A DNA stretch of 63,860 nt from a virus (lineage: Duplodnaviria; Caudoviricetes). Where the stretch lies: positions 1-63,860 of IMG/VR virus record IMGVR_UViG_3300042881_000493; one strand, given 5' to 3'. Positions 8,321-47,098 of this stretch are shown in pieces. Each line of letters opens with the position of its first letter. Within the stretch, counting starts at the first letter, position 1. Position numbers and translations under genes: made by a program. Under the pieces are notes generated by a model. That model worked only from the letters and a program-made list of their open reading frames with translations, had not been told where the DNA came from and searched no databases.

Positions 8321-8824
8321 ATGGAACTTACCCAAGAAATGGTTAAAAAGATGTTTGACTACCGTGCAGACGGTGAGTTGATTCGTCGCCATTCTATAAT
8401 GGGTAATGGTAACTATGCTGGTGCTGTGGTTGGTACAAAACCAACAGGCGCTCGTAACTTCAGATACAGTACAACTAAAATTCATGGTGAGCATTGGTGT
8501 GTTCACAAGCTAATTTATCTGTATCATCATGGAGTGGTTCCAGATCAATTGGATCACATTAATCGGGACTCGACTGATAACAGAATAGAAAATTTGCGTC
8601 CTGCCAATTCATCTGAGAATACCCGTAACCGCAGATTGTTTTCAAACAACACATCTGGCTGTAAGGGAGTTACATGGAATAAGCGCATAAAAAAATGGCA
8701 GTCTTATGTATCAATGAATTCAAAGACAAAACATCTTGGTTATTTTGAAGATTTAGAATTGGCAGACCTTGTTTCAACTGAAGCCCGTGATCTATATCAT
8801 GGCAAATACGCAACTCATGCGTGA
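8321..8824 (+). CDS. Freestanding HNH homing endonuclease with a C-terminal AP2-like domain
   Basis: LDHINRDSTDNRIENLR HNH motif; NNTSGCKGVTW...HLGYF...YHGKYA AP2-like tail. Confidence 0.9.
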   Translation: MELTQEMVKKMFDYRADGELIRRHSIMGNGNYAGAVVGTKPTGARNFRYSTTKIHGEHWCVHKLIYLYHHGVVPDQLDHINRDSTDNRIENLRPANSSENTRNRRLFSNNTSGCKGVTWNKRIKKWQSYVSMNSKTKHLGYFEDLELADLVSTEARDLYHGKYATHA

Positions 8825-8836
8825 AGGAGATATATC

Positions 8837-9214
8837 ATCGCAAATCCCAACATAGTTAACGTCACGACCCTAACGGGCAATACAACGTATCTAACGCCCG
8901 GCAATACAACAGCTAACACTCTGCTGTCTAACGCTGCATCTTCTGGTCTGGTCTTTAAGATCAACCAGATTGTGTGTGCTAATGTGAACGGCTCAAGTGC
9001 AGTAAATGCAACGGTAGCAATTAACAACCAAGCTGCCGGCGCAGGTACAAACTACCCAATCATCTCTACGATCTCAGTGCCTGCTAGTGCATCTGTGATT
9101 GCAGTGGATAAGACAACGGCTGTGTACCTGATGGAGAACTCATCCATTGTGGTGACATCTGGTACATCTAGCGGTATCACTTACACGATCTCATACGAGA
9201 GCATCGCCAGTTAA
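8837..9214 (+). CDS. Tail-associated structural protein; apparent ATC start (xANPNIVNVTT...)
   Basis: AAGGAGA RBS ends 6 nt before ATC 8837; frame open to TAA 9214, extending the 8972 ORF by 45 codons. Confidence 0.7.
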   Translation: MANPNIVNVTTLTGNTTYLTPGNTTANTLLSNAASSGLVFKINQIVCANVNGSSAVNATVAINNQAAGAGTNYPIISTISVPASASVIAVDKTTAVYLMENSSIVVTSGTSSGITYTISYESIAS

Positions 9215-9226: not shown

Positions 9227-10357
9227 ATGTCTATAAGACAAATGTTTCCGGGGAGTATTGTTAAGCCGGGGTTTAATCCTCTAGCGGTTCAGACACCTAT
9301 CTATACTTACAATTTGTACGGTTGGGGCGATAACTCTTATGGTCAATTAGGATTGGGCAATATAACTAATCGCTCTTCTCCTAATCAAGTCGGTGCTTTG
9401 ACTGATTGGTTAAGCATTGTTACTAGATACAGCACATTGGCTTTAAAAACTAACGGGACAATTTGGGCTTGGGGTAGGAATCAAGCAGGCCAATTGGGAC
9501 TTGGTAACACTACCTACTATTCATCTCCAAAACAAGTCGGTTCTTTAACAACTTGGTCTGTTGTGGCAACTATTAACAATGCGTCTATGGCATTAAAGTC
9601 TGATGGAACACTATGGACATGGGGTGGTAATAGTTTTGGCGCATTAGGTCTTGGCGATACTATATCTAGGTCTAGCCCAGTACAAGTTGGAGCTTTGACC
9701 AATTGGGCAAAGATTTCTACAGGTGCAAATTTTGGTGGTTTTGCAATTACAACTAGTGGCGCTTTGTATGGCTGGGGTTACAACACTTCAGGTGCATTAG
9801 GGTTGGGTAATGTCACCAACTATTCGTCACCTAAGCAGGTCGGTTCATTAACTAATTGGTCATCTGTTGTATCTGGAATACAAAACACTTACGCAATTAA
9901 AACAGATGGCACATTTTGGGCTTGGGGTAACGGTAACTATGGGGCATTAGGTCTTGGTAACTCAACATATTATTCCAGCCCAAAACAAGTCGGAGCTTTG
10001 ACCAATTGGTTGCAAGTTTCGGCATCGGAATATTCTGCATTAGCTGTTAAAACTGACGGTACATTATGGTCTTGGGGAGATGGTGGTTCAGGCGTTTTGG
10101 GTTTAGGTAATACAAGCAATTACAACTCTCCCAAGCAGGTTGGTGCTTTAACTGCATGGACTGCTGTAAGGCTTGGTAAAAACTTTGCTATTGCTTCTAA
10201 AACAGACGGAACTATTTGGACTTGGGGAAATAATACTTTAGGTGAATTAGGTTTAGGCAATACAACCAACAGAAGTTCCCCAGTACAAGTAGGAGCACTT
10301 GCCACTTGGGGCTATATTACTGCTGGCGCTCAATCAACTTTTGCCCTAGCTTTCTAA
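9227..10357 (+). CDS. RCC1/BLIP-II-like beta-propeller repeat protein (type A1)
   Basis: About 7 repeats of DGTLWxWGxNxxGQLGLG...SSPKQVG; N-terminal KPGFNPLA. Confidence 0.9.
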   Translation: MSIRQMFPGSIVKPGFNPLAVQTPIYTYNLYGWGDNSYGQLGLGNITNRSSPNQVGALTDWLSIVTRYSTLALKTNGTIWAWGRNQAGQLGLGNTTYYSSPKQVGSLTTWSVVATINNASMALKSDGTLWTWGGNSFGALGLGDTISRSSPVQVGALTNWAKISTGANFGGFAITTSGALYGWGYNTSGALGLGNVTNYSSPKQVGSLTNWSSVVSGIQNTYAIKTDGTFWAWGNGNYGALGLGNSTYYSSPKQVGALTNWLQVSASEYSALAVKTDGTLWSWGDGGSGVLGLGNTSNYNSPKQVGALTAWTAVRLGKNFAIASKTDGTIWTWGNNTLGELGLGNTTNRSSPVQVGALATWGYITAGAQSTFALAF

Positions 10358-10366
10358 GAGACAACT

Positions 10367-11521
10367 ATGCCAGTAACAATCCCCGGCGTTCAATACTCAG
10401 GCATCTGGACAATGCAACAGGTGAATGCCGCTATTGCGGCTGGGACTTGGCCTGTCGGTAGCCCCCAATTTCTTTGGGGCTGGGGAACAAATAATTATGG
10501 TCAACTTGGACTTGGCAATACAACTTATTCGTTTTCATCACCGCAACAAGTTGGTTCATTGGCTACATGGAAAAGTGTAACTAGTAAATACTTTAATACA
10601 ACAGCTTTAAAATCAGACGGCACTCTTTGGGCTTGGGGCTATAATCAATACGGGGTTTTAGGGCTTGGTAACACAACAGATTATTCATCACCTAAACAGG
10701 TTGGTGCTTTGACTGCTTGGTCTAAAATTCGTAATGGGGCATATCACACTCTAGCCATAAAAACAGACGGCTCTCTTTGGGCATGGGGATACAATGCTTT
10801 TGGGCAACTTGGTTTGGGTAATACAACCAATCGATCTTCTCCCGTCCAAGTAGGTTTATTAACTGATTGGCTTGAAATAGGCGCTGGCAATTACAACACC
10901 CTTGCTGTTAAAACAAATGGCACTCTTTGGGCTTGGGGTTACAACGCTAACGGAAATCTTGGTTTAGGTAACCTCACATATTATTCATCCCCAAAACAAG
11001 TTGGCGCTTTAACAAACTGGGCTACTGTTGCAGGCGGATTTTATTTTTCTTTAGCCGTTAAAACAGATGGAACACTTTGGTCTTGGGGAGGTAACAACCA
11101 AGGTCAATTAGGTTTGGGCGATCAAACTTACAGATCATCTCCTGTTCAAGTTGGCGCTTTAACTACTTGGTACAATATTTCGGGTGGCAATACTTTTACT
11201 GTTGCGACTAAAACAAATGGCACATTGTGGTCATGGGGCCGAAACAATTTGGGGCAATTAGGTTTAGGTACTACTAGCTATTATTCTGCTTCTCCTAACC
11301 AAATAGGTTCTTTAACAACTTGGTTAAACATAGCTAATGGTTACAGTTTTGCTATTGCTACACAAACAAGCGGCGCTCTTTATGCTTGGGGGCGTAACAA
11401 TTCTGGACAATTAGGTCAAGGTGACACGGTAAATCGTTCTTCTCCAACTCAAGTTGGTGCATTAACTACTTGGACAACAATTGGTGCTGGGATACATTTT
11501 CCATTGGCAATCAAAGGATAA
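10367..11521 (+). CDS. RCC1-like beta-propeller repeat protein (type B1)
   Basis: RCC1 repeats; N-terminal GVQYSGIW...TWP. Confidence 0.9.
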   Translation: MPVTIPGVQYSGIWTMQQVNAAIAAGTWPVGSPQFLWGWGTNNYGQLGLGNTTYSFSSPQQVGSLATWKSVTSKYFNTTALKSDGTLWAWGYNQYGVLGLGNTTDYSSPKQVGALTAWSKIRNGAYHTLAIKTDGSLWAWGYNAFGQLGLGNTTNRSSPVQVGLLTDWLEIGAGNYNTLAVKTNGTLWAWGYNANGNLGLGNLTYYSSPKQVGALTNWATVAGGFYFSLAVKTDGTLWSWGGNNQGQLGLGDQTYRSSPVQVGALTTWYNISGGNTFTVATKTNGTLWSWGRNNLGQLGLGTTSYYSASPNQIGSLTTWLNIANGYSFAIATQTSGALYAWGRNNSGQLGQGDTVNRSSPTQVGALTTWTTIGAGIHFPLAIKG

Positions 11522-11528
11522 TAACTGC

Positions 11529-13307
11529 ATGAACAAAACACTGCACTTCCTCTCTGGCATTCCTCGTTCTGGCTCGACAGTCCTTGCGGCTATCCTGAAC
11601 CAGAACCCAATGACTCATGTATCCACCACATCTGGGCTTGTCCACGCCCTTGATGGGCTTGCCAACACATGGCATTCGGCTGGCTTGCTGAACGAAAACG
11701 ACCCGGAGAGAACAAAGTTAGCGCAGACCATGCGCGGGGCAATTGATGCGTTCTACGAAGACACTGACAAGCCTGTCATCATCGACAAGTCCCGTGGCTG
11801 GCCTATTGGTCAAATTATGGGTGCTATGTCGCAGGTGCTAGGTCGTCAGCCTAAGATCATTGCTACTGTTCGCTCAGTGCCTGACTGCGCCGCCAGCTTC
11901 ATTCGTGTAGCAAAACCCACAGACCTAGACGAATTCATGGCAACTGGTCAACTGATGGATCACCTCAAAGCCGCTTACATCTCCCTCCAGAATGGCTACG
12001 AGTACGCACCAGAGAACTTCCTATTTGTTGAGTATGAAGACCTGTTAGCTGACCCCAAAGCGCAGTTAGCCCGTATCCATGAGTTCTTGGGTCTGCCTGA
12101 GTTTGCCTACGACTTCAACAACATTGATGGCTCAAGCGTAGCTGAAGATGATGAAAACTTGCACGGTCACGCAGGGATGCACGATGTCAAGCCTGTATTG
12201 GCGGCGCAGCATAAGCAAGACCCCCGCGACCTGCTGAAGCACCACTACTCAGCTTTCTGTCAGCCTGAGTTCTGGCTTGAGCGTCCACGCACAGTTCCTG
12301 AGTTGCATGACCTAGACCTACAGCTTGCCGCATCCACAATGGGTGACTTTGCTGAAGGCTGGAGACTGGCCCAAAAGTTAGAAGCTGAAGAGCCTAGCAA
12401 CCACCGAGCCGCCTATAACCGTGGCTGGTACTTACTGCGTCAAGGTCAAATCCAAAAGGGCTACGGCTTGATGGACAGAGGCCGTATCGTAGGTGTCTTT
12501 GGTAACTCACGACCTGATGTGCCTACACCCCAGTGGGATGGCAAGACAAAGGGTACGGTCATGCTGTATCTGGAAGGCGGTCTGGGCGATCAGATTCACC
12601 AGATTCGTTATGCCAAGCTAATCGCAGAGCGTGGCTGTAAGGTGGTGGTGTCTTGTACTGGCCCACTAGCATCATTGTTCCAAGGCGTAGAAGGCGTATC
12701 AGCCGTTGTTCAGCACGAGGCTACCTTTGGTATCTACCACGACTTCTTTGTGTCTGGAATGTCTGCTGTAGTGCCTCTAGGCTTAGAACTCCGTGACCTG
12801 TCTGGTGCGCCATACCTTGAGAAGCCAATGTCAATCAAAGGTCGCAAAAAACGCATCGGTCTGCGCTGGCAGGGCAACAGTAAGTTTGAGCACGAACACA
12901 ATAAGAAATTCCCTTATGAACTCATGTTTGAGGCGGTAAAGGATATTGATGCTGAGTTTGTTTCCCTTCAAAGAGATGAAGGAATGGAAGCGTGTCCAGC
13001 TTGGGTTAAGCAAGTCCCCTTGAATACTTGGCAAGATACCCAGCAAGCTGTAGCAAGTTGCGATCTGGTCATCTCAGCTTGTACCAGCGTGTCACACCTA
13101 TCGTCTGCCATGGGCGTAGAAACTTGGGTAATAACGCCTGTAATGCCATACTTTTTGTATTCCATGGACGGCGACAAAACACCATATTACGATAGCATGA
13201 GACTGTTTAGGCAAGAAGTTTACGGCGATTGGACGCATCCGTTCTTGTCAGTTAAAGCAACTTTGATTAAAATGTTTGGGCAACCTAAACTAAGGAATGT
13301 GGCGTGA
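11529..13307 (+). CDS. Fusion: PAPS-dependent sulfotransferase + TPR-like segment + GT9 (heptosyltransferase-like) domain
   Basis: GIPRSGST 5'-PSB loop, IIDKSRGW, VEYEDL; RAAYNRGWYLL TPR-like; EGGLGDQI and CDLVISACTSVSHLSSAMG GT9-like motifs. Confidence 0.8.
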   Translation: MNKTLHFLSGIPRSGSTVLAAILNQNPMTHVSTTSGLVHALDGLANTWHSAGLLNENDPERTKLAQTMRGAIDAFYEDTDKPVIIDKSRGWPIGQIMGAMSQVLGRQPKIIATVRSVPDCAASFIRVAKPTDLDEFMATGQLMDHLKAAYISLQNGYEYAPENFLFVEYEDLLADPKAQLARIHEFLGLPEFAYDFNNIDGSSVAEDDENLHGHAGMHDVKPVLAAQHKQDPRDLLKHHYSAFCQPEFWLERPRTVPELHDLDLQLAASTMGDFAEGWRLAQKLEAEEPSNHRAAYNRGWYLLRQGQIQKGYGLMDRGRIVGVFGNSRPDVPTPQWDGKTKGTVMLYLEGGLGDQIHQIRYAKLIAERGCKVVVSCTGPLASLFQGVEGVSAVVQHEATFGIYHDFFVSGMSAVVPLGLELRDLSGAPYLEKPMSIKGRKKRIGLRWQGNSKFEHEHNKKFPYELMFEAVKDIDAEFVSLQRDEGMEACPAWVKQVPLNTWQDTQQAVASCDLVISACTSVSHLSSAMGVETWVITPVMPYFLYSMDGDKTPYYDSMRLFRQEVYGDWTHPFLSVKATLIKMFGQPKLRNVA

Positions 13308-13858
13308 CTGAAGAATCTTGCACCGTGTATGAGATTGCCAACCAGTTGGATGGCATGAAATACTTTGGTGTAACAAAAAATCCACACAAACGGTTTATTT
13401 ACCATTGTGCAAAATCAAAAACTAAATCGTACATTTCTCATGCAATAGCAAGACATGGGAAAGAAAACTTCCAAATAAAAGTGCTTCTGGTAAGCAACCG
13501 CAGGTACTGCTTGGAAATGGAAGCAAAACTTATCAAAGCGTACAACACAGTTGCACCAAATGGGTATAACATTTGTGGTGGTGGTGAAGGCCCAGTTGCT
13601 TCATTATTTGGCGATAAGAATCCAATGTTTGGCAGAAAACAAAAGCCAGAATCAGTTGCCAAAAGCAGGGCTGGTGTTTTGGGTTCAAACAATTATTTAG
13701 CTAAAGAGTTTGTGGCTACCGACCCTACTGGTAAACAATACACTGGCAAGGGCTTGGCGCTTTTTTGTTTGGAATATGGTTTGCATACTTCCAATATGGC
13801 GCAAGTGGCTAGGGGTTTGCGGAATCATAGCAAAGGCTGGAAGGTTCAATATGTTTAA
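13304..13858 (+). CDS. Freestanding GIY-YIG homing endonuclease with a NUMOD3-like segment
   Basis: VYEIAN...KYFGVT, PNGYN, GDKNPMFGRKQ; GTG start overlapping the upstream stop. Confidence 0.85.
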   Translation: MTEESCTVYEIANQLDGMKYFGVTKNPHKRFIYHCAKSKTKSYISHAIARHGKENFQIKVLLVSNRRYCLEMEAKLIKAYNTVAPNGYNICGGGEGPVASLFGDKNPMFGRKQKPESVAKSRAGVLGSNNYLAKEFVATDPTGKQYTGKGLALFCLEYGLHTSNMAQVARGLRNHSKGWKVQYV

Positions 13859-13891
13859 TCTGTCTAACAAGCCAGCATTGAGGAGTGTAGC

Positions 13892-15010
13892 GTGAGCTTT
13901 AGATACGCCGCTGGGATAAACAAGCCGGGGTTCAACCCGCTGGCGGCTCAGACAAGCACTCTTCAAACTACGCTGTTTAGCTGGGGGTATAACACCCAAG
14001 GTCAGTTAGGTTTAGGAAATGTTACCTATTATTCCTCTCCAAAACAAATAGGCTCTTTAACTAATTGGGCTACTGTATCTAACGGAACAAACTTTAGTAC
14101 AGCAATTAAAAGAGATGGCACATTTTGGGCTTGGGGTTTAAACAGCAATGGGCAACTTGGCGTAGGAAATACAACCAGTTACTCTAGTCCAAAACAAATT
14201 GGCGCTTTAACTACTTGGTCTAAAACTGCTGGTGGTTTTACTCATGTCCTTGCAATTAAAACAGACGGAACTCTGTGGGCATGGGGTGATAATGCTCAAG
14301 GTCAATTAGGCGACGGCACTACAACTCAACGAAACTCTCCCGTTCAAATTGGCGCGTTGACTATATGGTCAAACATTGCAGGGGGTAGTGATTTTTCAAT
14401 AGCTACTCAAACCAACGGTACGCTTTGGAGTTGGGGTCGTAGCACCTATGGCCAACTTGGACTTGGGAACACTACTAGTTACTCCTCTCCTAAACAAATT
14501 GGTGCATTAACGGCATGGTCTAAAGTAACCACTGGAAACATTTATGCCCTTGCCGTTAAAACTGATGGTACTTTATGGTCTTGGGGTTATAACAACTATG
14601 GTCAACTTGGTGTTGGCAACACCACCAACTATTCTTCCCCCAAACAAATTGGTGCGTTAACCACTTGGTCTACCATTGATGCTGGCTGGGCTTTTGCTCT
14701 TGCCGTTACAACAGGCGGCGCTCTTTATGCTTGGGGTGAGAACGGAACGGGTCAACTAGGTCAAGGTAACTTTACTGATAGATCATCTCCAAATCAAATA
14801 GGTGCACTTACTACATGGGCAGTCCCCGCTGGTGGCAGGGCACACAGTCTTGCCACTACAACAGGGGGAGAGCTTTGGTCATGGGGTCAAAATACTTACG
14901 GTGAGCTTGGTCTAGGTAGTACAGCAATAAAACTTTCTCCTAATCAAGTAGGGTCAAATACTACTTGGCTTATTGTGGCGTGTGGTCAATATCACACAAC
15001 AGCGGGATAG
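13892..15010 (+). CDS. RCC1-like beta-propeller repeat protein (type A2)
   Basis: GTG start with AGGAG RBS; KPGFNPLA leader; RCC1 repeats. Confidence 0.9.
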   Translation: MSFRYAAGINKPGFNPLAAQTSTLQTTLFSWGYNTQGQLGLGNVTYYSSPKQIGSLTNWATVSNGTNFSTAIKRDGTFWAWGLNSNGQLGVGNTTSYSSPKQIGALTTWSKTAGGFTHVLAIKTDGTLWAWGDNAQGQLGDGTTTQRNSPVQIGALTIWSNIAGGSDFSIATQTNGTLWSWGRSTYGQLGLGNTTSYSSPKQIGALTAWSKVTTGNIYALAVKTDGTLWSWGYNNYGQLGVGNTTNYSSPKQIGALTTWSTIDAGWAFALAVTTGGALYAWGENGTGQLGQGNFTDRSSPNQIGALTTWAVPAGGRAHSLATTTGGELWSWGQNTYGELGLGSTAIKLSPNQVGSNTTWLIVACGQYHTTAG

Positions 15011-15014
15011 AACT

Positions 15015-16172
15015 ATGGCAACTACAACAGTCGTATCAGGCGTTCAATACTCAGGTATCTGGAACATCAGCAGTCAAGCCAATGCTAAGGCGGCAAATAC
15101 TTGGCCTGTCCCTCCTTCTCCAGCTTTGTTTACATGGGGGGCTGGTGCATTTGGTGTTTTAGGTTTAGGAAACACAACTAATTATTCATCCCCTAAACAA
15201 GTTGGCTTATTAAAAGCGTGGTTAAATTTAGCAAGTGGTGCATCCCATGTAATATCAAGCAAAGAGGATGGGACTCTTTGGGCGTGGGGCAGAAATAATT
15301 CAGGCCAACTTGGTGTAGGAGACACTGCTAATAAATCATCACCAACTCAAATTGGCGCGTTAACAACTTGGTTAAAAGTTGCGGCGGGTGGATATTCATC
15401 ATATGCAATAAAAACTGATGGAACTTTATGGTCTTGGGGTAGTAATAGCGCAGGCCAATTAGGTCTTGGCAATATAACCTACTACTCAAGTCCCAAACAG
15501 ATTGGTGCTTTAACTACTTGGTTATCAATTGCTAGTGGTTTTTACACTGCAATTGCAATTAAAACTGACGGAACATTGTGGTCTTGGGGAAATAATACTT
15601 ATGGACAACTTGGTATTGGCAATACATCTGTTAGGTCATCCCCAGTTCAAGTTGGCGTTTTAACTAATTGGCTTAATATTGCAAGTGGTAAATATTACAC
15701 TTTATCTGTAAAAACAGATGGAACACTGTGGTCTTGGGGTCAAAATAACTCAGGACAGTTAGGTCTTGGAAATACAACTGCATACTCGTCACCTAAACAA
15801 GTTGGCGCATTAACTGCTTGGAATATTGTAGCTAGTAAAGAAAATCATGGTTTATCCATTAAAACTGATGGTTCATTGTGGTCATGGGGTGTTAATGGTA
15901 ATGGACAACTTGGTCTTGGAGATAGCGCAAATCGGTCATCCCCAGTTCAAGTTGGCGCTTTAACTAATTGGTTAAAAATAACAGGTGGTCAATATCAATC
16001 TTTATCAATTAAAACGGATGGCACTCTGTGGTCATGGGGAGATGGTGGTGGTGGAAGACTTGGATTGGGAAATACTACCCAGTACAACTCACCAAAACAA
16101 GTTGGAGCATTAACTAATTGGGCCGTTGTTTCAACTGGTACAACTGCAACTGTTGCAACTGCATACCTTTAA
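15015..16172 (+). CDS. RCC1-like beta-propeller repeat protein (type B2)
   Basis: ATG 15015; GVQYSGIW...TWP leader; RCC1 repeats. Confidence 0.9.
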   Translation: MATTTVVSGVQYSGIWNISSQANAKAANTWPVPPSPALFTWGAGAFGVLGLGNTTNYSSPKQVGLLKAWLNLASGASHVISSKEDGTLWAWGRNNSGQLGVGDTANKSSPTQIGALTTWLKVAAGGYSSYAIKTDGTLWSWGSNSAGQLGLGNITYYSSPKQIGALTTWLSIASGFYTAIAIKTDGTLWSWGNNTYGQLGIGNTSVRSSPVQVGVLTNWLNIASGKYYTLSVKTDGTLWSWGQNNSGQLGLGNTTAYSSPKQVGALTAWNIVASKENHGLSIKTDGSLWSWGVNGNGQLGLGDSANRSSPVQVGALTNWLKITGGQYQSLSIKTDGTLWSWGDGGGGRLGLGNTTQYNSPKQVGALTNWAVVSTGTTATVATAYL

Positions 16173-16203
16173 TTTAAAATAACTTTTTAACAAGGAGTCT
16201 TAA

Positions 16204-16614
16204 ATGACACATTATGTACAAGTCCTCAATGGGGAAATCAAACAAGTCTGGGACACACCTCCCGCAGAAGGCGTAGGCAATAACGGCTGGCGCAACGCTG
16301 TGGAAGTTCGTCCTGCAATCACAGCACACCGTCAGGGCTACACTGCCCACCGCTTTGATCTGAGCACTGATCCAGTGCAGATCATTTGGGACACATACGA
16401 TATTTCTGTGGCTGACCGCAAAAACGGTATGAAATCCAACGCAGGTTTTGGATTCCAACAAGTGGTGATGGAGCAGTCCCGCCTACAGCTTTCTCCTAAC
16501 GCTAACGAGCAGTACGATGCCACAGCGGTAGAGACAGCGCGTCAGGCTATGTTGACCAAGCAAGCCGCTATCGAAGCCGCTACAACTCACGATCAATTAG
16601 ACGCTCTGCTATGA
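16204..16614 (+). CDS. Hypothetical protein, possible fibre-assembly chaperone
   Basis: AAGGAG RBS; follows the fibre/RCC1 genes; C-terminus AAIEAATTHDQLDAL. Confidence 0.5.
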   Translation: MTHYVQVLNGEIKQVWDTPPAEGVGNNGWRNAVEVRPAITAHRQGYTAHRFDLSTDPVQIIWDTYDISVADRKNGMKSNAGFGFQQVVMEQSRLQLSPNANEQYDATAVETARQAMLTKQAAIEAATTHDQLDALL

Positions 16615-17399
16615 AGCGTATTTTGATTATGGGTTTGCCCGGCGCGGGTAAGACCACCTTAGCTCAACACATCCTTGATCACTTGCAAGCAGAACGCAAG
16701 ACGGTCATGTGGCTTAACGCCGATGATGTGCGTAAGAAGTACAACGACTGGGACTTTTCCCACGAAGGCCGTATTCGTCAGAGCCTACGGATGCGTGAGC
16801 TTGCTGACAGCTACGATGTAGACTATGTGATCTGCGACTTTGTTGCTCCTCTTGTTGAGATGCGTAACAACTTTAAAGCTGACTGGACTATCTGGGTTGA
16901 CACCATCAATCAAGGTCGTTTTGAAGACACCAACAAGGTGTTCGTTCCTCCTAAAGAATATGACTTCAGGATCACCGAGCAGAAGTCTGAGAAGTGGGGT
17001 GAGTTCATTGCCGCACACATCTTGGATGACCGCCGCCGCCCTGTGTTTGACTGGCAAAAAGAAACAGTCCAGATGCTTGGCAGATGGCAACCGTGGCATG
17101 AAGGCCACCGTAAACTGTTTGAACGGGCGTTAGCTAAGACTGGTCAAGTTGTGATCCAGATCAGGGACTGCCAAGGCTGGAACGGCTCTAACCCGTTTGC
17201 CGCCAATCAGGTCAAAGAGTTTATTAGCCGTGATCTAGACCCCCTGTACCAAGGTCAGTACGAAGTTCAATTGGTTCCTAACATTGTCAACATTACCTAC
17301 GGGCGCGATGTTGGATACAAGATTGAGCAGGAATCTTTTGACGATGCTACCCACGCTATCTCGGCAACCAAGATACGCAAAGAGATGGGAATTGAATAA
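16611..17399 (+). CDS. Adenylylsulfate-kinase-like P-loop domain fused to an HxGH nucleotidyltransferase domain
   Basis: GLPGAGKTT, WLNADDVR, DFVAP; C-terminal LGRWQPWHEGH...ISATKIR. Confidence 0.75.
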   Translation: MKRILIMGLPGAGKTTLAQHILDHLQAERKTVMWLNADDVRKKYNDWDFSHEGRIRQSLRMRELADSYDVDYVICDFVAPLVEMRNNFKADWTIWVDTINQGRFEDTNKVFVPPKEYDFRITEQKSEKWGEFIAAHILDDRRRPVFDWQKETVQMLGRWQPWHEGHRKLFERALAKTGQVVIQIRDCQGWNGSNPFAANQVKEFISRDLDPLYQGQYEVQLVPNIVNITYGRDVGYKIEQESFDDATHAISATKIRKEMGIE

Positions 17400-17616
17400 G
17401 TACCATGTGCGCTTTAACACCAAGCACAATGGCTCTGACTTGGTGTGGCGTATCTTTGAGAACGGTGATGAACATCTTGCCACTGATGTAAGAATCGTTG
17501 GCGAGACTTTCACGGAATGCACTCACGAGCACGGCGAAACCAAATGGAACATTGCCTGCAAGGGTAGGCTAGTCTGGGTGGACAAAGTAGCTGTGATCGT
17601 GACTGACAAAGACTAA
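17392..17616 (+). CDS. Hypothetical protein (MNKYHVRFNTKH...)
   Basis: TTG start overlapping the upstream gene; TAATG coupling to the next gene. Confidence 0.6.
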   Translation: MNKYHVRFNTKHNGSDLVWRIFENGDEHLATDVRIVGETFTECTHEHGETKWNIACKGRLVWVDKVAVIVTDKD

Positions 17617-18056
17617 TGACTATTGTCTTCACCAATGGATGCTTTGATGTGCTCCACCGTGGGCACATCGAGTATCTAAAGCAGTCCCGTCAACTTGGGA
17701 CTAGACTGGTTGTGGGGCTGAACTCAGACGCTTCTGTTAAGAGGCTCAAGGGTGATAACAGACCTATCAACAATCAGGACGACCGCAGGGCACTGTTGCT
17801 GGCGCTCAGGTGTGTAGATCAGGTGGAAATCTTCGAGGAAGATACGCCACTAGAGTTGATCATGCGCATCAACCCTGACATCATTACCAAGGGGGGTGAC
17901 TACCAGCCTGCTCAAGTTGTGGGACACGCTGTTGTTCAGAAAACAGTTATCATTCCATTTTTAGACGGGTATTCATCAACAAGGATTATCCATGCGGTTA
18001 AAAGGAATAGTGGAGAAGGGTTGGGGTTCGGAGCTAATCTGGGCAACCAACGATAA
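17616..18056 (+). CDS. hldC: Heptose-1-phosphate adenylyltransferase (HldC / RfaE domain II)
   Basis: VFTNGCFDVLHRGH, VGLNSDASVKRLKG..RP, FEEDTP, KGGDY, YSSTRII. Confidence 0.9.
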   Translation: MTIVFTNGCFDVLHRGHIEYLKQSRQLGTRLVVGLNSDASVKRLKGDNRPINNQDDRRALLLALRCVDQVEIFEEDTPLELIMRINPDIITKGGDYQPAQVVGHAVVQKTVIIPFLDGYSSTRIIHAVKRNSGEGLGFGANLGNQR

Positions 18057-18354
18057 ATACTGCGGAAAGCTGATGACCTTTCGCAAGGGTGCTAAGTTTT
18101 CCATGCACTTCCACGCTGAGAAAGACGAGACTTGGCTAGTCCAAGGTGGTCTGTTCAAGGTCATCTGGATTGACACCAAAGATGCCAGCCGCCATGAGAA
18201 GGTTCTCAACATTGGGGACACATGGCACAACCCACCATTATTGCCACACCAGCTAGTCTGCCTAACAGCAGGTGTGATCTTGGAAGTCTCAACTGCTGAC
18301 TCCGTGGAGGATAACTACCGAGTCGAAACAGGAGACAGCCAATGCGCATCCTAG
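17992..18354 (+). CDS. Cupin-fold protein, putative sugar-phosphate isomerase
   Basis: VEKGWGSE...YCGK, SMHFHAEKDETW, PHQL, EVST..SVEDNYR. Confidence 0.75.
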   Translation: MRLKGIVEKGWGSELIWATNDKYCGKLMTFRKGAKFSMHFHAEKDETWLVQGGLFKVIWIDTKDASRHEKVLNIGDTWHNPPLLPHQLVCLTAGVILEVSTADSVEDNYRVETGDSQCAS

Positions 18355-19055
18355 TCATTGGTGACGGTTGTATCGACGAATACCGCTATGGCGAGATACG
18401 CAGGGTAAACCCTGAATCTACTGCGCCCCTCTTAAACTTTGAGAAAAGCGAAGAGAAGATGGGCATGGCGTTTAATGTTGCTCAGAACCTTCAGGCATTT
18501 GGCGCTGAAGTCACCTTGTGCGTTAGCGACGAAATATCCCGCAAGATCAGATACATTGACCGCAGGACTGGTGAGCACCTTCTGAGGGTTGATCAGGATG
18601 TGGAGGCTAAGCCCTACGACTTTGGCGTGCCCATGGAGGGGTTTGATGCCATTGTGATCTCTGACTACAACAAGGGGCATGTGCTTGACGAAGTTGTTTT
18701 GCAATTGCGCCAGCAGTTTGAGGGGCCAATCTACATGGACACCAAGAAGCGCAACTTGGCAGACTTTCCTGACATTTACATCAAGATCAACCAGCGCGAA
18801 CTGTACGACTCTACCTCACTGCCTGATTCAGAATATCTGATAGTCACCTATGGCGCTAAGGGCTGTGGATACAAGGACAAGCTATATCCTGCCAAACCTA
18901 TTGAGGTGTTGGATGTCTGCGGGGCAGGGGATGTATTCCTAGCAGCTATGGTCTATAAGCATTTAGAAACTGGCGACATGGGCCAAGCTTTGCCGTTTGC
19001 CAATGAGAAAGCGGCAATATCTTGCCAGAGCATAGGGGCTGTATGCATATCTTAA
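18342..19055 (+). CDS. hldA: Heptose-7-phosphate kinase (HldA / RfaE domain I, PfkB family)
   Basis: LVIGDGCIDEY, GMAFNVAQNL, LRVD, ISDYNKG, KINQRE, DVCGAGDVF. Confidence 0.85.
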   Translation: MRILVIGDGCIDEYRYGEIRRVNPESTAPLLNFEKSEEKMGMAFNVAQNLQAFGAEVTLCVSDEISRKIRYIDRRTGEHLLRVDQDVEAKPYDFGVPMEGFDAIVISDYNKGHVLDEVVLQLRQQFEGPIYMDTKKRNLADFPDIYIKINQRELYDSTSLPDSEYLIVTYGAKGCGYKDKLYPAKPIEVLDVCGAGDVFLAAMVYKHLETGDMGQALPFANEKAAISCQSIGAVCIS

Positions 19056-19798
19056 TTACTGGATACAAAGGGTTTATTGGCCAGAACATGGTCAAAGCCC
19101 TGTCAGATCACGACCTAGATCTGTGTGAATGGGGTGATGAGTATTCCCTCTATGGAATAGATAGAGTCATTCACCTTGGTGCTATCTCAGATACAAGGTG
19201 TCAGGATTGGGTAGCACTACGCAGACAGAACGTAGGGTTTACCATTACTCTTATGGAGAGGTGCCAGCGGGCGGGGATACCTATTCAAATAGCTTCTTCG
19301 GCTTCGGTCTATGGGCCAAACAATACGACGTTTAAAGAGACTGACCCAGTAGCTCCTGCTAATCTATACGCTGAATCCAAAGCTTTAATCGAGCAGTACT
19401 TCCATGAGATGCGTCCTGTCTCGCCCGTGCAGATCTTTAGATACTTTAATGTCTATGGCCCACACGAAGATCACAAGGGGGATCAGGCTTCTCCGTTTCA
19501 CAAGTTCCGCGAGCAGGCAAAGACAGGAACGATTAAAATATTTGAAGGTTCAGAAAACTTTAAACGTGACTTTATCCATGTAGATGAAGTTATCAAAGTT
19601 CACAGAAAACTTTTAATTTTTCTAGGTTCTGGAATTTGGAACGTAGGAACTGGAAAAACAATGTCATTTTTAGACGTTGCTCGCTTGGCAGCAGATGAAT
19701 TTTCAGCGAAAATAGAGACTATTCCAATGCCTATTTTGGGTGGGTATCAAATGTATACATGTGCTGACATGACCAAACTGAACGGGATATTGAAATGA
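19043..19798 (+). CDS. hldD: ADP-L-glycero-D-manno-heptose 6-epimerase (HldD/RfaD)
   Basis: ITGYKGFIG, HLGAISDT, ASSASVYG, YAESK, RYFNVYGPHEDHKGDQAS, KRDFIHV, NVGTG, YQMYTCAD. Confidence 0.88.
   Translation: MHILITGYKGFIGQNMVKALSDHDLDLCEWGDEYSLYGIDRVIHLGAISDTRCQDWVALRRQNVGFTITLMERCQRAGIPIQIASSASVYGPNNTTFKETDPVAPANLYAESKALIEQYFHEMRPVSPVQIFRYFNVYGPHEDHKGDQASPFHKFREQAKTGTIKIFEGSENFKRDFIHVDEVIKVHRKLLIFLGSGIWNVGTGKTMSFLDVARLAADEFSAKIETIPMPILGGYQMYTCADMTKLNGILK
19604..19623 (-). promoter_or_regulatory. 20-bp palindromic motif copy inside hldD
   Basis: Reverse complement is AGAAAAATTAAAAGTTTTCT, identical to 37086-37105. Confidence 0.55.
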
Positions 19799-20849: not shown

Positions 20850-20969
20850 ATGGCACACGCTACTACTTGTTTGGTTAACGAAGACGGCCCATGCACTTGT
20901 GGGTTTGAAGAGATTCTTGAGGATGAGGCAAGAGAAGCCGCACAAGAGCATCTTGAAGAAGAGCAATGA
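20850..20969 (+). CDS. 39-aa acidic Cys/His peptide (not in ORF track)
   Basis: MAHATTCLVNEDGPCTCGFEEILEDE...; fills the holin-endolysin gap exactly, ATGA overlap. Confidence 0.5.
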   Translation: MAHATTCLVNEDGPCTCGFEEILEDEAREAAQEHLEEEQ

Positions 20970-21409
20970 ACCTAGCACTAGCCGCAGAGATGTGCAAACG
21001 GTTTGAGGGTTTTCGCTCCAAGCCGTATCTTTGCCCCGCCAATGTAGCCACGATTGGCTACGGTTCTACCTACTACGCAGATAAGCGCAAGGTAACTTTA
21101 GAAGATGCACCAATGAGTCAGGAAGAAGCTCACGCGCTTTTAATGATTGAGCTTGAGCATACGTACCTACCCGGTGTTCTGCGTAACTGTCCCGGCTTAA
21201 TTCTGGACGAACGCAGGTGCAACGCCATCGTGGACTTTGCCTACAATTTGGGCACAGGACGCTTGCAAACATCTACGTTAAAGAGGAAAATCAATGCCAA
21301 TGATTGGGAAGGAGCAAAAGAACAACTTATGCTCTGGACTAAGGGTGGCGGTCGAGTACTGCCGGGACTATTAAAACGCCGCACGGCTGAGTGCGCTTTG
21401 TTGGATTGA
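20966..21409 (+). CDS. Endolysin, GH24 phage lysozyme
   Basis: FEG...PYLCPANVATIGYGST, FAYNLG, LPGLLKRRTAE. Confidence 0.92.
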   Translation: MNLALAAEMCKRFEGFRSKPYLCPANVATIGYGSTYYADKRKVTLEDAPMSQEEAHALLMIELEHTYLPGVLRNCPGLILDERRCNAIVDFAYNLGTGRLQTSTLKRKINANDWEGAKEQLMLWTKGGGRVLPGLLKRRTAECALLD

Positions 21410-24176: not shown

Positions 24177-27100
24177 ATGGCATTAACACAAGAACAAGTT
24201 GACTGGTGGTTTGCCCAGAATCCAAATGCTACTGCCGATCAAGTAGCTGCCGCCGTTCAATCTGCTGGTGGGTTAGAAGCTAACGCAGGGTTAGCTGGCA
24301 TGATTGCCAATAGATATGCTATTGCTGAACCAGAAGTAACTAATTACTACAACACATATACATCTGGTATTGCAACTCTTCCTACCGTACCGTCTACCCC
24401 AGTCGTACCATCTACCCCAGTCGTACCGTCTACCCCAGTAGTAACGTCTGACCCAGTAGTAACGTCTGACCAAGTAATTACATCAGCCCCAACATCCGTT
24501 GCGCCTGTTGTTGATACAGTAGCTCAAGATTATTGGAATCAACAAGCCGCATTACAGCAAGCAGAGTGGGAAAGACAAGCGGCGTTGCAACAAGCTGAAT
24601 GGGAGCGTTTAGCCGCCATAAGAGATGCTGGTACAACGACCAGTACAACAACTGCTACAACAACACCTGTCACCAACCCTTACGCCGCAATTACAGCCGC
24701 ATGGAATAGTGGTGACTACGGAGCTACCAATAGTCTTATTGCAAGTTCAGGATTAACAATATCAGATATCAAAGCTCACTATGGGTTAGATGATGCCACA
24801 ATGGATTTTGTGTTGAGCAAAGGAATCTATGCTCCAGTTGTTAGACCTGTAGTTACACCTGTAGTTTCAGTAAGCCCTACTGTTTTAGTTTCTGTTACGC
24901 CAACAGTTTTAACTACGCCTACAGTAGTTGGTATCGACACTCTTGCAGTAGCAGGTAGTGATGGAACCTTACTTAATGTTCCCGGTTATGGTGAACTAAG
25001 TACTTCTACCCTTAATACTTGGGAGCCTTGGCGTTTACAGATGTTGGGTATTACCAAGAATGCCGATAATACTTTTGGTTATACCGGTGGCCCAGCTTGG
25101 GAAACTACTGTAGGAACAACCAATAAAAATTTGTACGACCAAATCAATAGCATCTCTAATCTTCAAGGGATGAATGGTCTGTTTACAGGTGGTGCATTAA
25201 AAAAAGAAGATGGTGGTCTAGGTTCTAAAGAAGCTGTTCTGTGGGACTTTGCTAATAAGTTGTCTTCTGAAGGCATTACTAGTCTTGCCGATATTGGCAG
25301 ACGTATGGTTACAAAAACCAGAGAAACTGAACAAGGCACAGAAGAATATCAAGAAGAAGAGATCTATAACAAGTTAACTGGCAAAGCTTTTAACATACAA
25401 GGTACTTCATTAGGTAATAACAAAACTGACTATGGTTTTACTTTTACCAATACTGGTTTAGCTATACCTACAACCAAAGAAACAAAGGTTGGTTGGGCTG
25501 ATTTTAAAGAGAACACTCTTCCTTTAATTCTTACTGCGGTATCTGTAGCTCTTCCGGGCACGGCTCCTTACATTCAAGCATACAACGCTGCCAAGGCTGC
25601 ACAGAATGGTAATTGGGCTGCTGCGGCTTTTAGTGGATTGGCTTCAGCTTCAGGATTTTCTGCACAAATTACTGCGGATATTAATGCTCTTGTTAAAGCA
25701 GGCGACCTTGCTGGAGCGGAACAGCTTTATAACAATAGCTGGTTAGCTCAGAACGCTGGCACTTTAAAGACGGCAACAGATGCAGCTTCATTTGTAAATG
25801 CTATTGACCAGAAAAACGTAGCAGGTGTTATCAATGCAGGTATGAACCTAGCAGGTACAACACTACCACCAGAAGTTCGTACTGCTGTTAACTGGGCAAA
25901 CTTAGGTAAAGCCATAGCTGACAATGACTATGCAGGCATGGCTAATGCGGCTAGTACTTTAACTGGAAGTACCAATTTAAAAATAGCAGCATCGGCAACT
26001 AACTTTGTAAAAGCGTTAGATATATTTAATAAGACTGGTAATCCGTCTGGATTAATTAGTGCTGGTAATGCGTTTGGTAATTTAATTAAAAATCTACCAA
26101 GTTCTTCAGGTACTGGGACAGATGTAATTACTGCACTTGAAAATTCTGGGCTTACTGAAGGTCAAGGTTTATCAACAGCAGAGCAACGTTCTAATGCTTT
26201 GACTACAATATATGACTATAATAATAATGAGAATAATCTAGGTGTTAATTTAATTAGCCCTACGCAACTTGCAGCGGGTGATGGTTATACAGGTGGATTA
26301 CCTAAACCAGATTTTCAACCCAATAAAGTTAATATTGATACGGCTACTGGTAAAGCATTTTTTACTACGATTGATACATCAGGCAAGACTATAAACATTC
26401 CTGTTGTTATTGATGGCGCTACGGGTCAGCTATTAACTTCTTCTGGTAATGCTGAGGCTTTAAATAGAGCACTAGCGGATATTCCTAGACTATCATTTAG
26501 TTCTGATTTGATGAGAGCTTTGCAGGTATTGAATCCTGCTATCGGTGATCGCACAATTATTCCAACCAGTTCTATTGTGACGCAGGCAGAGTTAGATGCT
26601 TTGCTGGGAAAAGAAACAATAGATGTTACTGCTAAAGATGTAACTGGAACGTCAACTGATACTACAGGTAAATCAACAATTCAATCTGTTGCAGACGTAT
26701 TAAGAACATTTGGCAGTCTTGATGTTGCAGAAACTGCAATGGGTATTGATGCTTTATTAAAGATTCCCGGCGTTCAAGAAGCTATGAATGCTGGATATAT
26801 TAGAGATTTAGAGGCAGAACTTAATTTAGATCCATCCAGAACTGAATTACTTGAAGAGTACAAACGTATAACTGGTAGAGATTTTACTCCCAACGTAACT
26901 GATTTCGGTACAGTAGTTATTACTGGAACTCGTCCAACTACTACAGTATCTACATCTCCAGTCCCATTATTCTTAGATGCAGATGGAAACTATGTAACTA
27001 AAGATGATTTAGATTTATTAACAAGTAAATCTGTGTCTGTATCTCCAAGTGTTGGAACAATTGTATTGCCTGCTGTAACTCCCGCCGTAACGCCAGCAGT

Positions 27101-28106
27101 AACCCCAGCGGTTACTCCTGCTGTAACTCCAGTGGTTACTCCTGCTGTAACTCCAGTGGTTACTCCTGCTGTAACTCCAGTGGTTACTCCTGCTGTAACT
27201 CCAGTGGTTACTCCAGCAGTAACTCCTGTAGTTACACCTGTAGTTACTCCAGTTGTCACACCAGTAGTAACACCTGCCGTTACACCTGCGGTAACGCCTG
27301 CCGTCACACCTGTTGTTACTCCTGCTGTGACACCCGCAGTAACCCCAGCAGTTACGCCTGCGGTAACTCCAGCGGTAACTCCCGCCGTTACACCTGCTGT
27401 GACTCCTGCGGTTACACCCGCAGTTACTCCTGTAGTCACTCCTGTAGTTACGCCGGCGGTAACTCCTGCCGTGACCCCAGCAGTTACGCCTGTCGTGACT
27501 CCTACCGTCACTACAGCAGTTACAACTGTCGTCACTCCTGTTGTAACACCTACAGTTGTAGTGACACCAGTCATAACTCCAGTTATATCAGTCACTCCTG
27601 TAATTACTCCTACAGTTTTGATTACACCTGTAGTTACCCCAACTGTTTTAATTACACCTGTAATTACTCCGACAGTTTTAATTACTCCTGTAGTTTCAAT
27701 TACACCTGTAATTACCCCAACGGTCACACCTATAGTCACGCCAACTGTAAAGGTGTCAGTCAAGATTAGTGTTACACCCACTAAGTCTGTTGAGCCGTTC
27801 ACAATGCCGCAAGCTCAGAACATTGCGGCTGCTTTTGGTTTGCCTCAACTGGCAAATGTCTTCTACTACGGCAAAGAGTTTGGGTCTAAGAAACAAAAAC
27901 TTACCAAAAAGGGTGAGTTAGAAGATGAAGACTACCGTCCTCTCAGTGTGACCAAAGCGGGAGCAGAAGGTGAAATGCTAGAAGACATTGCCGAAGAGAA
28001 GAAAAACAAGGAAAATAACACCAATGACGCATTAGATTTGATCCTTGGGGAATCTAGTGATTCAATGTCGTTAGACGACTTAATTAATATTGTGAAGGGT
28101 GGCTAA
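24177..28106 (+). CDS. 1309-aa virion/ejection-region protein with a mucin-like VTP(A/V) tract
   Basis: Long ORF in the late operon; T/P/V-rich repeats; ends VKGG. Confidence 0.8.
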   Translation: MALTQEQVDWWFAQNPNATADQVAAAVQSAGGLEANAGLAGMIANRYAIAEPEVTNYYNTYTSGIATLPTVPSTPVVPSTPVVPSTPVVTSDPVVTSDQVITSAPTSVAPVVDTVAQDYWNQQAALQQAEWERQAALQQAEWERLAAIRDAGTTTSTTTATTTPVTNPYAAITAAWNSGDYGATNSLIASSGLTISDIKAHYGLDDATMDFVLSKGIYAPVVRPVVTPVVSVSPTVLVSVTPTVLTTPTVVGIDTLAVAGSDGTLLNVPGYGELSTSTLNTWEPWRLQMLGITKNADNTFGYTGGPAWETTVGTTNKNLYDQINSISNLQGMNGLFTGGALKKEDGGLGSKEAVLWDFANKLSSEGITSLADIGRRMVTKTRETEQGTEEYQEEEIYNKLTGKAFNIQGTSLGNNKTDYGFTFTNTGLAIPTTKETKVGWADFKENTLPLILTAVSVALPGTAPYIQAYNAAKAAQNGNWAAAAFSGLASASGFSAQITADINALVKAGDLAGAEQLYNNSWLAQNAGTLKTATDAASFVNAIDQKNVAGVINAGMNLAGTTLPPEVRTAVNWANLGKAIADNDYAGMANAASTLTGSTNLKIAASATNFVKALDIFNKTGNPSGLISAGNAFGNLIKNLPSSSGTGTDVITALENSGLTEGQGLSTAEQRSNALTTIYDYNNNENNLGVNLISPTQLAAGDGYTGGLPKPDFQPNKVNIDTATGKAFFTTIDTSGKTINIPVVIDGATGQLLTSSGNAEALNRALADIPRLSFSSDLMRALQVLNPAIGDRTIIPTSSIVTQAELDALLGKETIDVTAKDVTGTSTDTTGKSTIQSVADVLRTFGSLDVAETAMGIDALLKIPGVQEAMNAGYIRDLEAELNLDPSRTELLEEYKRITGRDFTPNVTDFGTVVITGTRPTTTVSTSPVPLFLDADGNYVTKDDLDLLTSKSVSVSPSVGTIVLPAVTPAVTPAVTPAVTPAVTPVVTPAVTPVVTPAVTPVVTPAVTPVVTPAVTPVVTPVVTPVVTPVVTPAVTPAVTPAVTPVVTPAVTPAVTPAVTPAVTPAVTPAVTPAVTPAVTPAVTPVVTPVVTPAVTPAVTPAVTPVVTPTVTTAVTTVVTPVVTPTVVVTPVITPVISVTPVITPTVLITPVVTPTVLITPVITPTVLITPVVSITPVITPTVTPIVTPTVKVSVKISVTPTKSVEPFTMPQAQNIAAAFGLPQLANVFYYGKEFGSKKQKLTKKGELEDEDYRPLSVTKAGAEGEMLEDIAEEKKNKENNTNDALDLILGESSDSMSLDDLINIVKGG
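27075..27783 (+). repeat. 12-nt coding tandem repeat (VTPA/VTPV, about 35 units plus a degenerate tail)
   Basis: GTNACNCCNG(C/T)N units; a near-exact 24-nt repeat around 27120-27213. Confidence 0.95.
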
Positions 28107-37087: not shown

Positions 37088-37105
37088 AAAAATTAAAAGT
37101 TTTCT
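37086..37105 (+). promoter_or_regulatory. 20-bp palindromic motif copy at the convergent late/early junction
   Basis: AGAAAAATTAAAAGTTTTCT spanning the gap between two stop codons. Confidence 0.6.
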
Positions 37106-47050: not shown

Positions 47051-47098
47051 GTAAAGCCTAAGCCCACAGGCTAATGTGTGGGTAGCTGGAGAAACAAT

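Follow-up and report, generated by a model that had tools for sequence, protein, structure and literature searches.

A candidate propeller-modifying module in a tailed phage: RCC1 genes paired with a sulfotransferase-TPR-GT9-like fusion gene

The IMG/VR record IMGVR_UViG_3300042881_000493 is an entire viral contig (63,860 bp; completeness rating, 100%), and the whole of it was analysed (hereafter, the window). At positions 9227 to 19798 it carries a block of genes encoding four RCC1 propeller proteins, a protein that joins a sulfotransferase, tetratricopeptide repeats (TPRs) and a glycosyltransferase (GT)-like domain, an adenosine 5'-phosphosulfate (APS) kinase-like enzyme, and proteins of the HldC, HldA and HldD types along with a small cupin. 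All of the named genes are on the + strand, and they either overlap or are separated by gaps of 33 nt or less. A preliminary description of this DNA interpreted the block as a system with which the phage heptosylates and sulfates its own virion proteins, an interpretation that is partly supported by the results below. The gene content, co-orientation, tight packing and location of the block amid structural genes, ahead of a lysis gene, were as described, while a GIY-YIG endonuclease, a nucleotidyltransferase domain on the kinase, and three small conserved open reading frames (ORFs) had been overlooked.

The four RCC1 genes are located at 9227-10357 (RCC1a; Pfam RCC1 E = 8.5e-70), 10367-11521 (RCC1b; E = 6e-76), 13892-15010 (RCC1c; E = 3.5e-76), and 15015-16172 (RCC1d; E = 1e-76), with the ATG at 15015 preferred over a TTG at 14973 as the start of the last. 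Each product is seven-bladed, with seven repeats and 235.7-284.3 bits against PF25390 (threshold for an RLD propeller, 150 bits), and the composition is rich in Ser (8-12%), Thr (11-14.5%), and Asn (7-8%), in agreement with the earlier account. The first ~25 residues of such proteins are conserved and fall into two or three types: RCC1a and RCC1c begin with type 1 (MSIRQMFPG...KPGFNPL) and RCC1b and RCC1d with type 2 (GVQYSGIWT...AAGTWP). The RCC1 genes are a hypervariable cassette. When the window is compared with one related locus (L003), positional RCC1 orthologs are 57-61% identical, barely above the 51-56% identity among RCC1 paralogs, while the flanking proteins are 93-98% identical. Because conserved anchors are combined with hypervariable distal domains inside a structural module, the propellers most likely serve this podovirus-like phage as host-recognition appendages that are distal and evolve fast, i.e., as receptor-binding appendages. 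In other phage lineages RCC1 domains are found within proteins 600-1,470 aa long, and one of these proteins bears Laminin_G_3 lectin domains as well. Two of the small conserved ORFs, both on the + strand, accompany the propeller genes. The first (8972-9214; 80 aa, rich in Ser and Thr) precedes the first RCC1 gene in relatives, and tblastn and hidden Markov model (HMM) searches placed its homologs directly upstream of RCC1 genes in most of the related viral loci, defined here as those of the best 80 relatives of the window fusion. The second (16204-16614; 136 aa) follows the last RCC1 gene in relatives, and its product matched no Pfam, NCBIfam or PHROG family.

The fusion gene (11529-13307, +) encodes 592 aa, and its ATG at 11529 fits the lengths of its homologs (589-592 aa). 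The encoded protein comprises a sulfotransferase domain (~11547-12098), a TPR linker (~12327-12452), and a GT9-like domain (~12555-13304). Pfam bears out the first two parts of what the preliminary description had called a sulfotransferase-TPR-GT9 fusion: Sulfotransfer_3 (PF13469) matches at E = 1.3e-16 and 61.9 bits (cut-off 27) and TPR_16 at E = 0.0081, and a profile of the C-terminal part matches designed TPR proteins at E = 7.7e-18. In a comparison of the sulfotransferase profile with PDB, the nearest entries were the CurM sulfotransferase (2e-11) and the protein-tyrosine sulfotransferases TPST1/2 (5e-10 to 3e-9). Segments PRSGST and RSxxDxxAS are conserved in the sulfotransferase alignment, and we take these to be the 5'-phosphosulfate-binding (5'-PSB) and 3'-phosphate-binding (3'-PB) loops that hold 3'-phosphoadenosine 5'-phosphosulfate (PAPS). 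The assignment of the N-terminal domain as a putative PAPS-type sulfotransferase is thus supported. The fusion of sulfotransferase to TPR and GT-like domains (the latter two together termed TPR-GT) is kept in 80 of 80 related viral loci. Elsewhere, the arrangement varies: the sulfotransferase is N-terminal to the TPR-GT in one clade, C-terminal in another (5 rows, 90% support), a separate neighbor in several places, and absent from most Bdellovibrio TPR-GTs and from the phage TPR-GTs adjacent to hld genes. It can be argued from this repeated joining that both activities would be directed at the same target.

The GT9 part of the fusion is seen at the profile level only. Profile-profile comparisons (hhalign) were made against E. 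coli WaaF, WaaC, WaaU, and WaaQ as the GT9 set. The family alignment gave 85.5%; an alignment of 409 domain copies from 150 cluster representatives gave 95.8% (E = 7e-9), over the C-lobe donor motif; and removal of the TPR columns gave 96.0% (E = 4e-9) over the N-lobe, with the fusion motif EGGLGD aligned to the Gly-Asp motif of GT9. Controls were low, at 0.1% for GT4 and 0.3% for GT41 compared with GT9. EGGLGD is invariant in 35 sequences (E349, G351, G353, D354) and aligns with G12-D13 of the E. coli enzymes, the Asp of which is presumably catalytic, after WaaC. The C-lobe motif of the fusion, ACTSVSHLSSAMG, has Cys where the GT9 donor motif D(S/T)GxxHxAAA has Asp. The consensus of a 410-row family alignment keeps the Asp (vDTaVAH), while the clade of the window reads SCT[SA]xAH and maintains that form strictly, from phages through Planctomycetota. 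Judged by these alignments, the C-terminal domain is GT9-like, homologous to GT9 at the profile level over both lobes. Among the relatives of the TPR-GT domain are many giant proteins (1,300-3,100 aa) in which 3-6 copies of the domain stand in tandem; one such protein, in an Oscillatoriales bin, is annotated just as 'tetratricopeptide repeat protein'.

The pairing of RCC1 and TPR-GT genes is the firmest result of this study, and it is new. An RCC1 gene is directly upstream of the fusion in 64 of 67 viral loci, and in 40 of 58 one is located downstream, no more than 1.5 kb away; the number of RCC1 ORFs per related viral locus is one in 24 loci, two in 21, three in 19, four in 12, and none in four. 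Moreover, TPR-GT genes adjoin genes for large RCC1 proteins in Bdellovibrionota, Planctomycetota, Bacteroidota, and one Chlamydiota bin, where the partners are often ~1,100 aa long with three propellers. Among cellular loci with at least 3 kb of sequence on both sides, RCC1 is found within 3 kb of the TPR-GT in 24 of 36. In two Planctomycetota genomes (7.2 and 7.5 Mb) the sole RLD gene adjoins the sole TPR-GT gene, and in Bdellovibrio bacteriovorus Bd16 the single TPR-GT is flanked by two of the eight RCC1 ORFs. In a quick tree of TPR-GTs, those linked to RCC1 form one clade of 89 rows, of which 72 carry RCC1 in the locus; among the remaining 17, many derive from contigs just a few kb long. 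Its sister clade (Azospirillum, Kordiimonas, and others) comprises 10 rows, and none of these has an RCC1 gene in the locus. The TPR-GT is therefore genetically tied to RCC1 proteins in viruses and cells alike, a much closer and broader link than the preliminary description could have recognized. A literature search found no description of an RCC1/glycosyltransferase/sulfotransferase module, nor of a phage sulfotransferase accompanied by an APS kinase. The main text of PMC9599517, on HTVC023P-type phages, mentions neither heptose nor sulfotransferase nor RCC1. Occurrences of the string 'RCC1' in PMC12906663, PMC8066274, PMC10218006, and PMC4611503 are strain numbers or locus tags and were discarded as false leads.

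Downstream of the propeller genes, the product of 16611-17399 (+) combines an APS-kinase-like domain (residues 1 to ~140) with a nucleotidyltransferase domain carrying HxGH and ISxTKIR motifs (~150-262). The kinase half matches APS_kinase (PF01583) at E = 1.5e-10 and 41.8 bits (cut-off 21.1) and E. coli CysC at 96.8% in hhalign, with LNADDVR aligned to LDGDNVR and FVAP to FISP, consistent with the APS-kinase-like enzyme proposed earlier; scores against the NCBIfam APS-kinase equivalogs are below their cut-offs (43.3 vs. 127 and 30 vs. 138.7). For the nucleotidyltransferase half (115 aa), hhalign gave 1.8% for ATP sulfurylase, 7.8% for NadR, 1.6% for CoaD, and 0.2% for HldC, with an effective number of sequences (Neff) in the alignment of 1.4, and a homolog search with this half returned close relatives only. 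Animal PAPS synthase likewise has a kinase followed by a nucleotidyltransferase, and the two differ in that the nucleotidyltransferase half of the window protein shows no specific likeness to ATP sulfurylase. Many relatives carry the kinase domain alone. Among the 26 related loci in which the sequence extends for 3.5 kb or more beyond the module, on which all counts of downstream genes in such loci are based, the kinase follows the module in 19. A scan centered on the kinase yielded 77 further loci, and in 24 of these a sulfotransferase of the window type is within 10 kb, often directly upstream. It is plausible that the kinase supplies PAPS to the sulfotransferase, as a role that is not exclusive. 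The fusion of APS-kinase-like and nucleotidyltransferase domains is itself very common (6,974 proteins at E ≤ 0.001). Overlapping the kinase gene is the third small conserved ORF (17284-17616, +), the start of which is provisional owing to this overlap. Copies of it are 73-77% identical in three related loci (L011, L012, and L046), and its product matched no family in Pfam, NCBIfam or PHROG scans.

The block ends with an hld cassette on the + strand, the members of which are as named in the preliminary description. It comprises an HldC-type heptose-1-phosphate adenylyltransferase (17616-18056; TIGR02199 E = 1.9e-52; phrog_7878), the cupin (17992-18354; phrog_7851 E = 7.8e-39, Cupin_2 E = 4e-5 and below cut-off), a short HldA-type heptose-7-phosphate kinase of 237 aa (18342-19055; TIGR02198 E = 4.6e-31; phrog_8133 E = 7.9e-76) with a conserved GAGD motif, and a short HldD-type ADP-heptose 6-epimerase of ~251 aa (19022-19798; likely start ATG 19043; TIGR02197 E = 2.5e-56; Epimerase E = 3.1e-29). 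All three Hld proteins score below the NCBIfam equivalog cut-offs (HldC, 176.9 vs. 181.5 bits; HldA, 108.1 vs. 345; HldD, 191.2 vs. 274.6), yet the ADP-heptose equivalogs are the best-scoring family for each, and PHROG families and alignment indicate that the short forms are conserved in phages. In a scan centered on HldA, 62 distant loci contained HldA (62), the cupin (54), HldC (49), and HldD (49); the cupin thus belongs integrally to the hld cassette in phages. A TPR-GT is present in 8 of these 62 loci, 7 of which also have RCC1, and the two are found beside hld in differing gene orders (L103/106, L117/119, L135/137, L146, and AG-345-E08). In marine virus AG-345-E08, RCC1, TPR-GT, RCC1, and sulfotransferase are each encoded by a gene of their own, and genes for HldC, HldA, and the cupin follow ~6 kb further on.

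The cupin may have a biosynthetic role. A small haloacid dehalogenase (HAD)-type phosphatase with a DxDxT motif is encoded in 22 of the 62 distant cassettes, and the cupin, kinase, HAD, adenylyltransferase, and epimerase together match the five steps from sedoheptulose-7-phosphate, which would make the cupin the isomerase; the cupin possibly stands in for GmhA. Family hints from the cupin itself are weak matches to phosphomannose isomerase (PMI), lyxose isomerase, and WbuC. The DxDxT protein of the cassettes (loci L103-L164; L083 at 10719-11063) is ~111 aa long, with a weak match to HAD_PNKP (E = 2.6e-4). Its length and position alone suggest that it may correspond to the gene that carries the label 'phosphoheptose isomerase' in cyanomyovirus P-SSM2, an ORF without a Pfam match; a better fit to this protein would seem to be the otherwise missing phosphatase step.

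Such cassettes have been viewed in another light, and this bears on the alternative, already raised in the preliminary description, that the enzymes act on the host envelope, remodeling the lipopolysaccharide (LPS) core or some other glycan and perhaps blocking superinfection in this way, with the RCC1 genes as unrelated neighbors. GT9 enzymes are classically LPS heptosyltransferases. Among the 62 distant hld loci, a classical GT9-like gene (92% against E. coli GT9) is present in 14, a carbamoyltransferase gene in 12, and a GT25 gene in 6. The clusters of cyanomyoviruses P-SSM2 and S-CAM3 encode the same short HldA, HldC, cupin, and HldD (35-43% identity) among tail-fiber genes and add the small HAD phosphatase and a carbamoyltransferase; unlike the window, neither record showed a TPR-GT, sulfotransferase or RCC1 in the 18-21 kb that was inspected. 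At least in the relevant passages of Sullivan et al. (2005; PMC1079782), the cyanophage clusters are taken as LPS genes that alter the cell surface. Opposed to this is the adjacency of RCC1 and TPR-GT in Bdellovibrionota, Planctomycetota, Bacteroidota, and several phage lineages, for which chance neighborhood is an inadequate account. Most fusion-bearing relatives, in addition, have no hld genes, and TPR linkers are suited to protein recognition. The pairing with RCC1 in bacteria makes envelope remodeling less likely, and it is considered improbable here.

The explanation favored here is a two-part module consisting of RCC1 propeller genes and a dedicated modifying enzyme. The TPR region of the fusion probably recognizes the propeller proteins. 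Within the cytoplasm, the GT9-like domain probably attaches a sugar to these proteins, for which heptose donated by ADP-heptose is the most plausible candidate; sulfation of that sugar, or of a residue close to it, would probably follow and be carried out by the fused PAPS-type sulfotransferase. PAPS would be produced by the APS-kinase-like protein, and ADP-L-glycero-D-manno-heptose by HldA, HldC, and HldD together with the cupin, all of them as optional boosters of donor supply. Observed directly are the domain identities, the gene linkage, and the hypervariability, whereas the acceptor, the two donors, the sequence of reactions, and a place in the virion are inferred; of the whole, action of a dedicated enzyme on the propellers has the best support. 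The proposal that the fusion modifies RCC1 propellers while the donor genes are optional is the best explanation of the locus and has about an even chance of being correct.

Several observations weigh against this proposal, beginning with the assignment of the GT domain and the identity of its donor. For the C-terminal 305 or 262 aa of the fusion, Pfam returned no glycosyltransferase family at E ≤ 10, and a six-frame scan of the window gave no match to PF01075 (Glyco_transf_9; gathering score 22 bits), so that the HMM comparison suggested in the preliminary description held for the sulfotransferase half and failed for GT9. The Pfam GT9 family weakly matches 8 of 17 homologs, with a best E of 0.0088, and PDB sequence and profile searches with the GT part recovered TPR designs only. 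Further, Cys replaces the donor-site Asp in all 80 fusions and in 7 of 7 complete TPR-GTs adjacent to hld, which means that the sugar may differ from heptose or that the domain may be inactive. From the latter it could follow that the TPR-GT9-like domain of this clade is dead and that it helps the propellers as a chaperone or an assembly factor, leaving the sulfotransferase as the sole enzyme, a reading for which the lost Asp and the sub-threshold Pfam score speak. The alignment of the invariant EGGxGD with the GT9 catalytic Asp speaks against it, as does the strict conservation of SCT[SA]xAH, which suggests a retained pocket, and a dead domain is deemed very improbable.

The donor genes are also less closely associated with the fusion than the block in the window implies. 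The hld genes follow the module in 5 of 26 related loci, and 54 of the 62 distant hld loci lack a TPR-GT inside 10 kb; the cassette in the window does not include the small HAD phosphatase. Likewise, 51 of the 77 additional loci with the kinase fusion have neither a sulfotransferase of this type nor a TPR-GT, and their neighbors are unrelated genes. The matched donors that the preliminary description emphasized do recur with the system, the kinase more often than hld, and are not fixed parts of it; similarly, the co-occurrence of hld with the fusion or its TPR-GT relatives was found, and most loci lack the pair. These figures are what would be expected if the fusion acts with RCC1 while the kinase fusion and hld genes are independent auxiliaries in a variable island near fiber genes, feeding other processes than this enzyme. 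The same is true of the kinase fusions in loci lacking the sulfotransferase, which are 67-98% identical and are located beside PhoH, GTP cyclohydrolase I or lysis genes, on contigs that in some cases are 176-383 kb long; such a spread across unrelated large viral contigs suggests that the kinase fusion is a widely exchanged auxiliary gene. Homing endonucleases, moreover, mark the region as a hot spot. Set against independence are the recurrence of a sulfotransferase directly upstream of the kinase across several architectures and the recurrence of TPR-GT and RCC1 beside hld in different gene orders. Independent auxiliaries are a possibility to be taken seriously and, on balance, an unlikely one.

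The remaining contrary evidence concerns the partner and the acceptor. In Bdellovibrio sp. HCB337, none of eight RCC1 genes adjoins the TPR-GT. Two candidate acceptors were tried and rejected. An N-glycosylation sequon (N-x-S/T) is present directly after the G.LG.G motif in 20 of 28 window blades and in 69% of 813 blades from the lineage of the window, while it is present in only 2% of blades from distant phages and 9% of blades from bacterial RCC1 partners; being confined to this lineage, it was dismissed as a general acceptor. Tyr sulfation was dismissed since Tyr at blade position +5, found in 63% of lineage blades, does not track the sulfotransferase outside the lineage, where it is found in 4% both for the 8 loci that have the sulfotransferase and for the 31 that lack it. 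The sole blade feature common to all sets of RCC1 partners is S-S-P at +6 to +8, and this may be a mere general trait of bacterial RCC1 proteins.

In its most detailed form, the favored proposal would be a hitherto undescribed RCC1-specific modification system built on a TPR-GT9-like clade (EGGxGD, SCT[SA]xAH) of phages, Bdellovibrionota, and Planctomycetota, which places sulfated heptose on receptor-binding propellers from self-supplied donors, with the cupin acting as GmhA and PAPS made by the APS kinase together with a minimal ATP-sulfurylase-like domain. It is unlikely that all of these particulars hold together.

Several known systems offer partial parallels. In TibC/TibA and AAH/AIDA-I, which are bacterial autotransporter heptosyltransferases and their adhesins, a cytoplasmic GT9-type enzyme is encoded beside the repeat-rich surface protein that it modifies multiply, with ADP-heptose as donor. 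From such descriptions the locus in the window appears similar in having a modifying enzyme encoded next to a repeat-protein partner. It differs in that the partner is an RCC1 beta-propeller rather than a beta-helix autotransporter, and in that the enzyme has TPRs, a sulfotransferase fused to it in this lineage, and Cys in place of the donor-site Asp. To WaaC, WaaF, WaaQ, and WaaU the likeness is one of profile (96%), including the N-lobe Gly-Asp motif and the C-lobe xHxAAAxG donor motif; the fusion departs from these enzymes in its TPR extension, its score below the Pfam GT9 threshold, its Cys for the Asp of D(S/T)G, and in having a protein gene as its genetic partner instead of LPS genes. 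Members of GT41 (OGT and the HMW1C-type N-glycosyltransferases) carry a TPR or helical domain at the N-terminus, ahead of a two-lobed glycosyltransferase with protein substrates. The order of TPR and then GT is shared, and the lineage-specific N-x-S/T is reminiscent of the HMW1C sequon; kinship with GT41 was nonetheless rejected because comparison of the GT part with four PF13844-positive sequences gave 0.1%, and the sequon is scarce in RCC1 partners of other lineages.

In mycobacteriophages, glycosyltransferases encoded near structural genes modify the phages' own virion proteins. Those enzymes belong to other GT families and act on capsid and tail tube targets, and they differ from the system proposed here in the absence of a sulfotransferase, donor-synthesis genes or propeller substrates. 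A putative capsid glycosylation is mentioned in the abstract of PMC11256854. With regard to the tyrosine sulfotransferases TPST, the fusion differs in that Tyr is not a conserved feature of its partner proteins.

The large terminase of this aquatic phage is ~53% identical to those of phage 023Pt_psg01 and of Pelagibacter phages HTVC027P and HTVC023P and 48% identical to those of cyanophages MinM2 and Pag-Yong1, and a megablast search of the block against phage records found no match, i.e., no cultured phage similar at the DNA level. Terminase, portal, and head genes are at 55.4-63.6 kb, and virion structural proteins are encoded at 3.1-8.3 kb and 21.4-23.5 kb. The 5' flank of the block consists of virion structural proteins and an HNH homing endonuclease gene (8321-8824), which lies 5' of the RCC1 genes; the 3' flank consists of two small ORFs, a lysozyme gene (20966-21409; E = 1.2e-33), and then a virion structural protein. 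With structural genes on both flanks and lysozyme downstream, the block sits inside the structural region, ahead of lysozyme. The GIY-YIG homing endonuclease gene (13304-13858, +; PF01541 E = 2.3e-9) is a mobile insert that stands outside the system. It is found at varying positions and in some relatives only (L005, L006, L020, L026, L027, L032, L059, L067, and L072). Scans for promoters and terminators gave numbers no better than chance (19 observed vs. 27 expected and 18 vs. 17, respectively), and the best promoter-like site of the region (10/12) is at 13245-13273, directly before the GIY-YIG gene.

Elsewhere in the genome, a family-2 glycosyltransferase is encoded at 59308-60093 (+) between portal and head genes (PF00535 E = 3.2e-24) and a second at 37104-37757 (-; E = 1e-6, 29.2 bits vs. 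23.3), after a 1,770-aa protein; with the fusion, the phage thus has three glycosyltransferase genes. The 1,770-aa ORF (31775-37087), which matches phrog_18222 (E = 7.8e-180) and weakly a DarB-like antirestriction family, is one of two very large ORFs downstream of the structural genes, the other being at 24177-28106 (1,309 aa). A replication/recombination module includes an ERF-type recombinase (39677-40363), a PD-(D/E)XK nuclease (41082-41984), a ParB-like protein (46247-47050), a helicase (47078-48574), and a Toprim-domain protein (48574-49398).

If the proposed modification is real, it would be the first case of sulfation, and the first of heptose-type glycosylation, tied to the host-recognition proteins of a phage. 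E. coli makes both of the proposed donors, ADP-heptose and PAPS, and the idea is therefore cheap to test. A function would be assigned to a very large family of unnamed 'TPR proteins' (28,474 representatives at E ≤ 0.001), and the 'LPS genes' of aquatic phages could be reinterpreted as possible tools for dressing virions rather than as genes directed at the host. Finally, the presence of paired RCC1 and TPR-GT genes in predatory Bdellovibrio hints that phages and these bacteria may share a way of building surfaces that recognize their prey.

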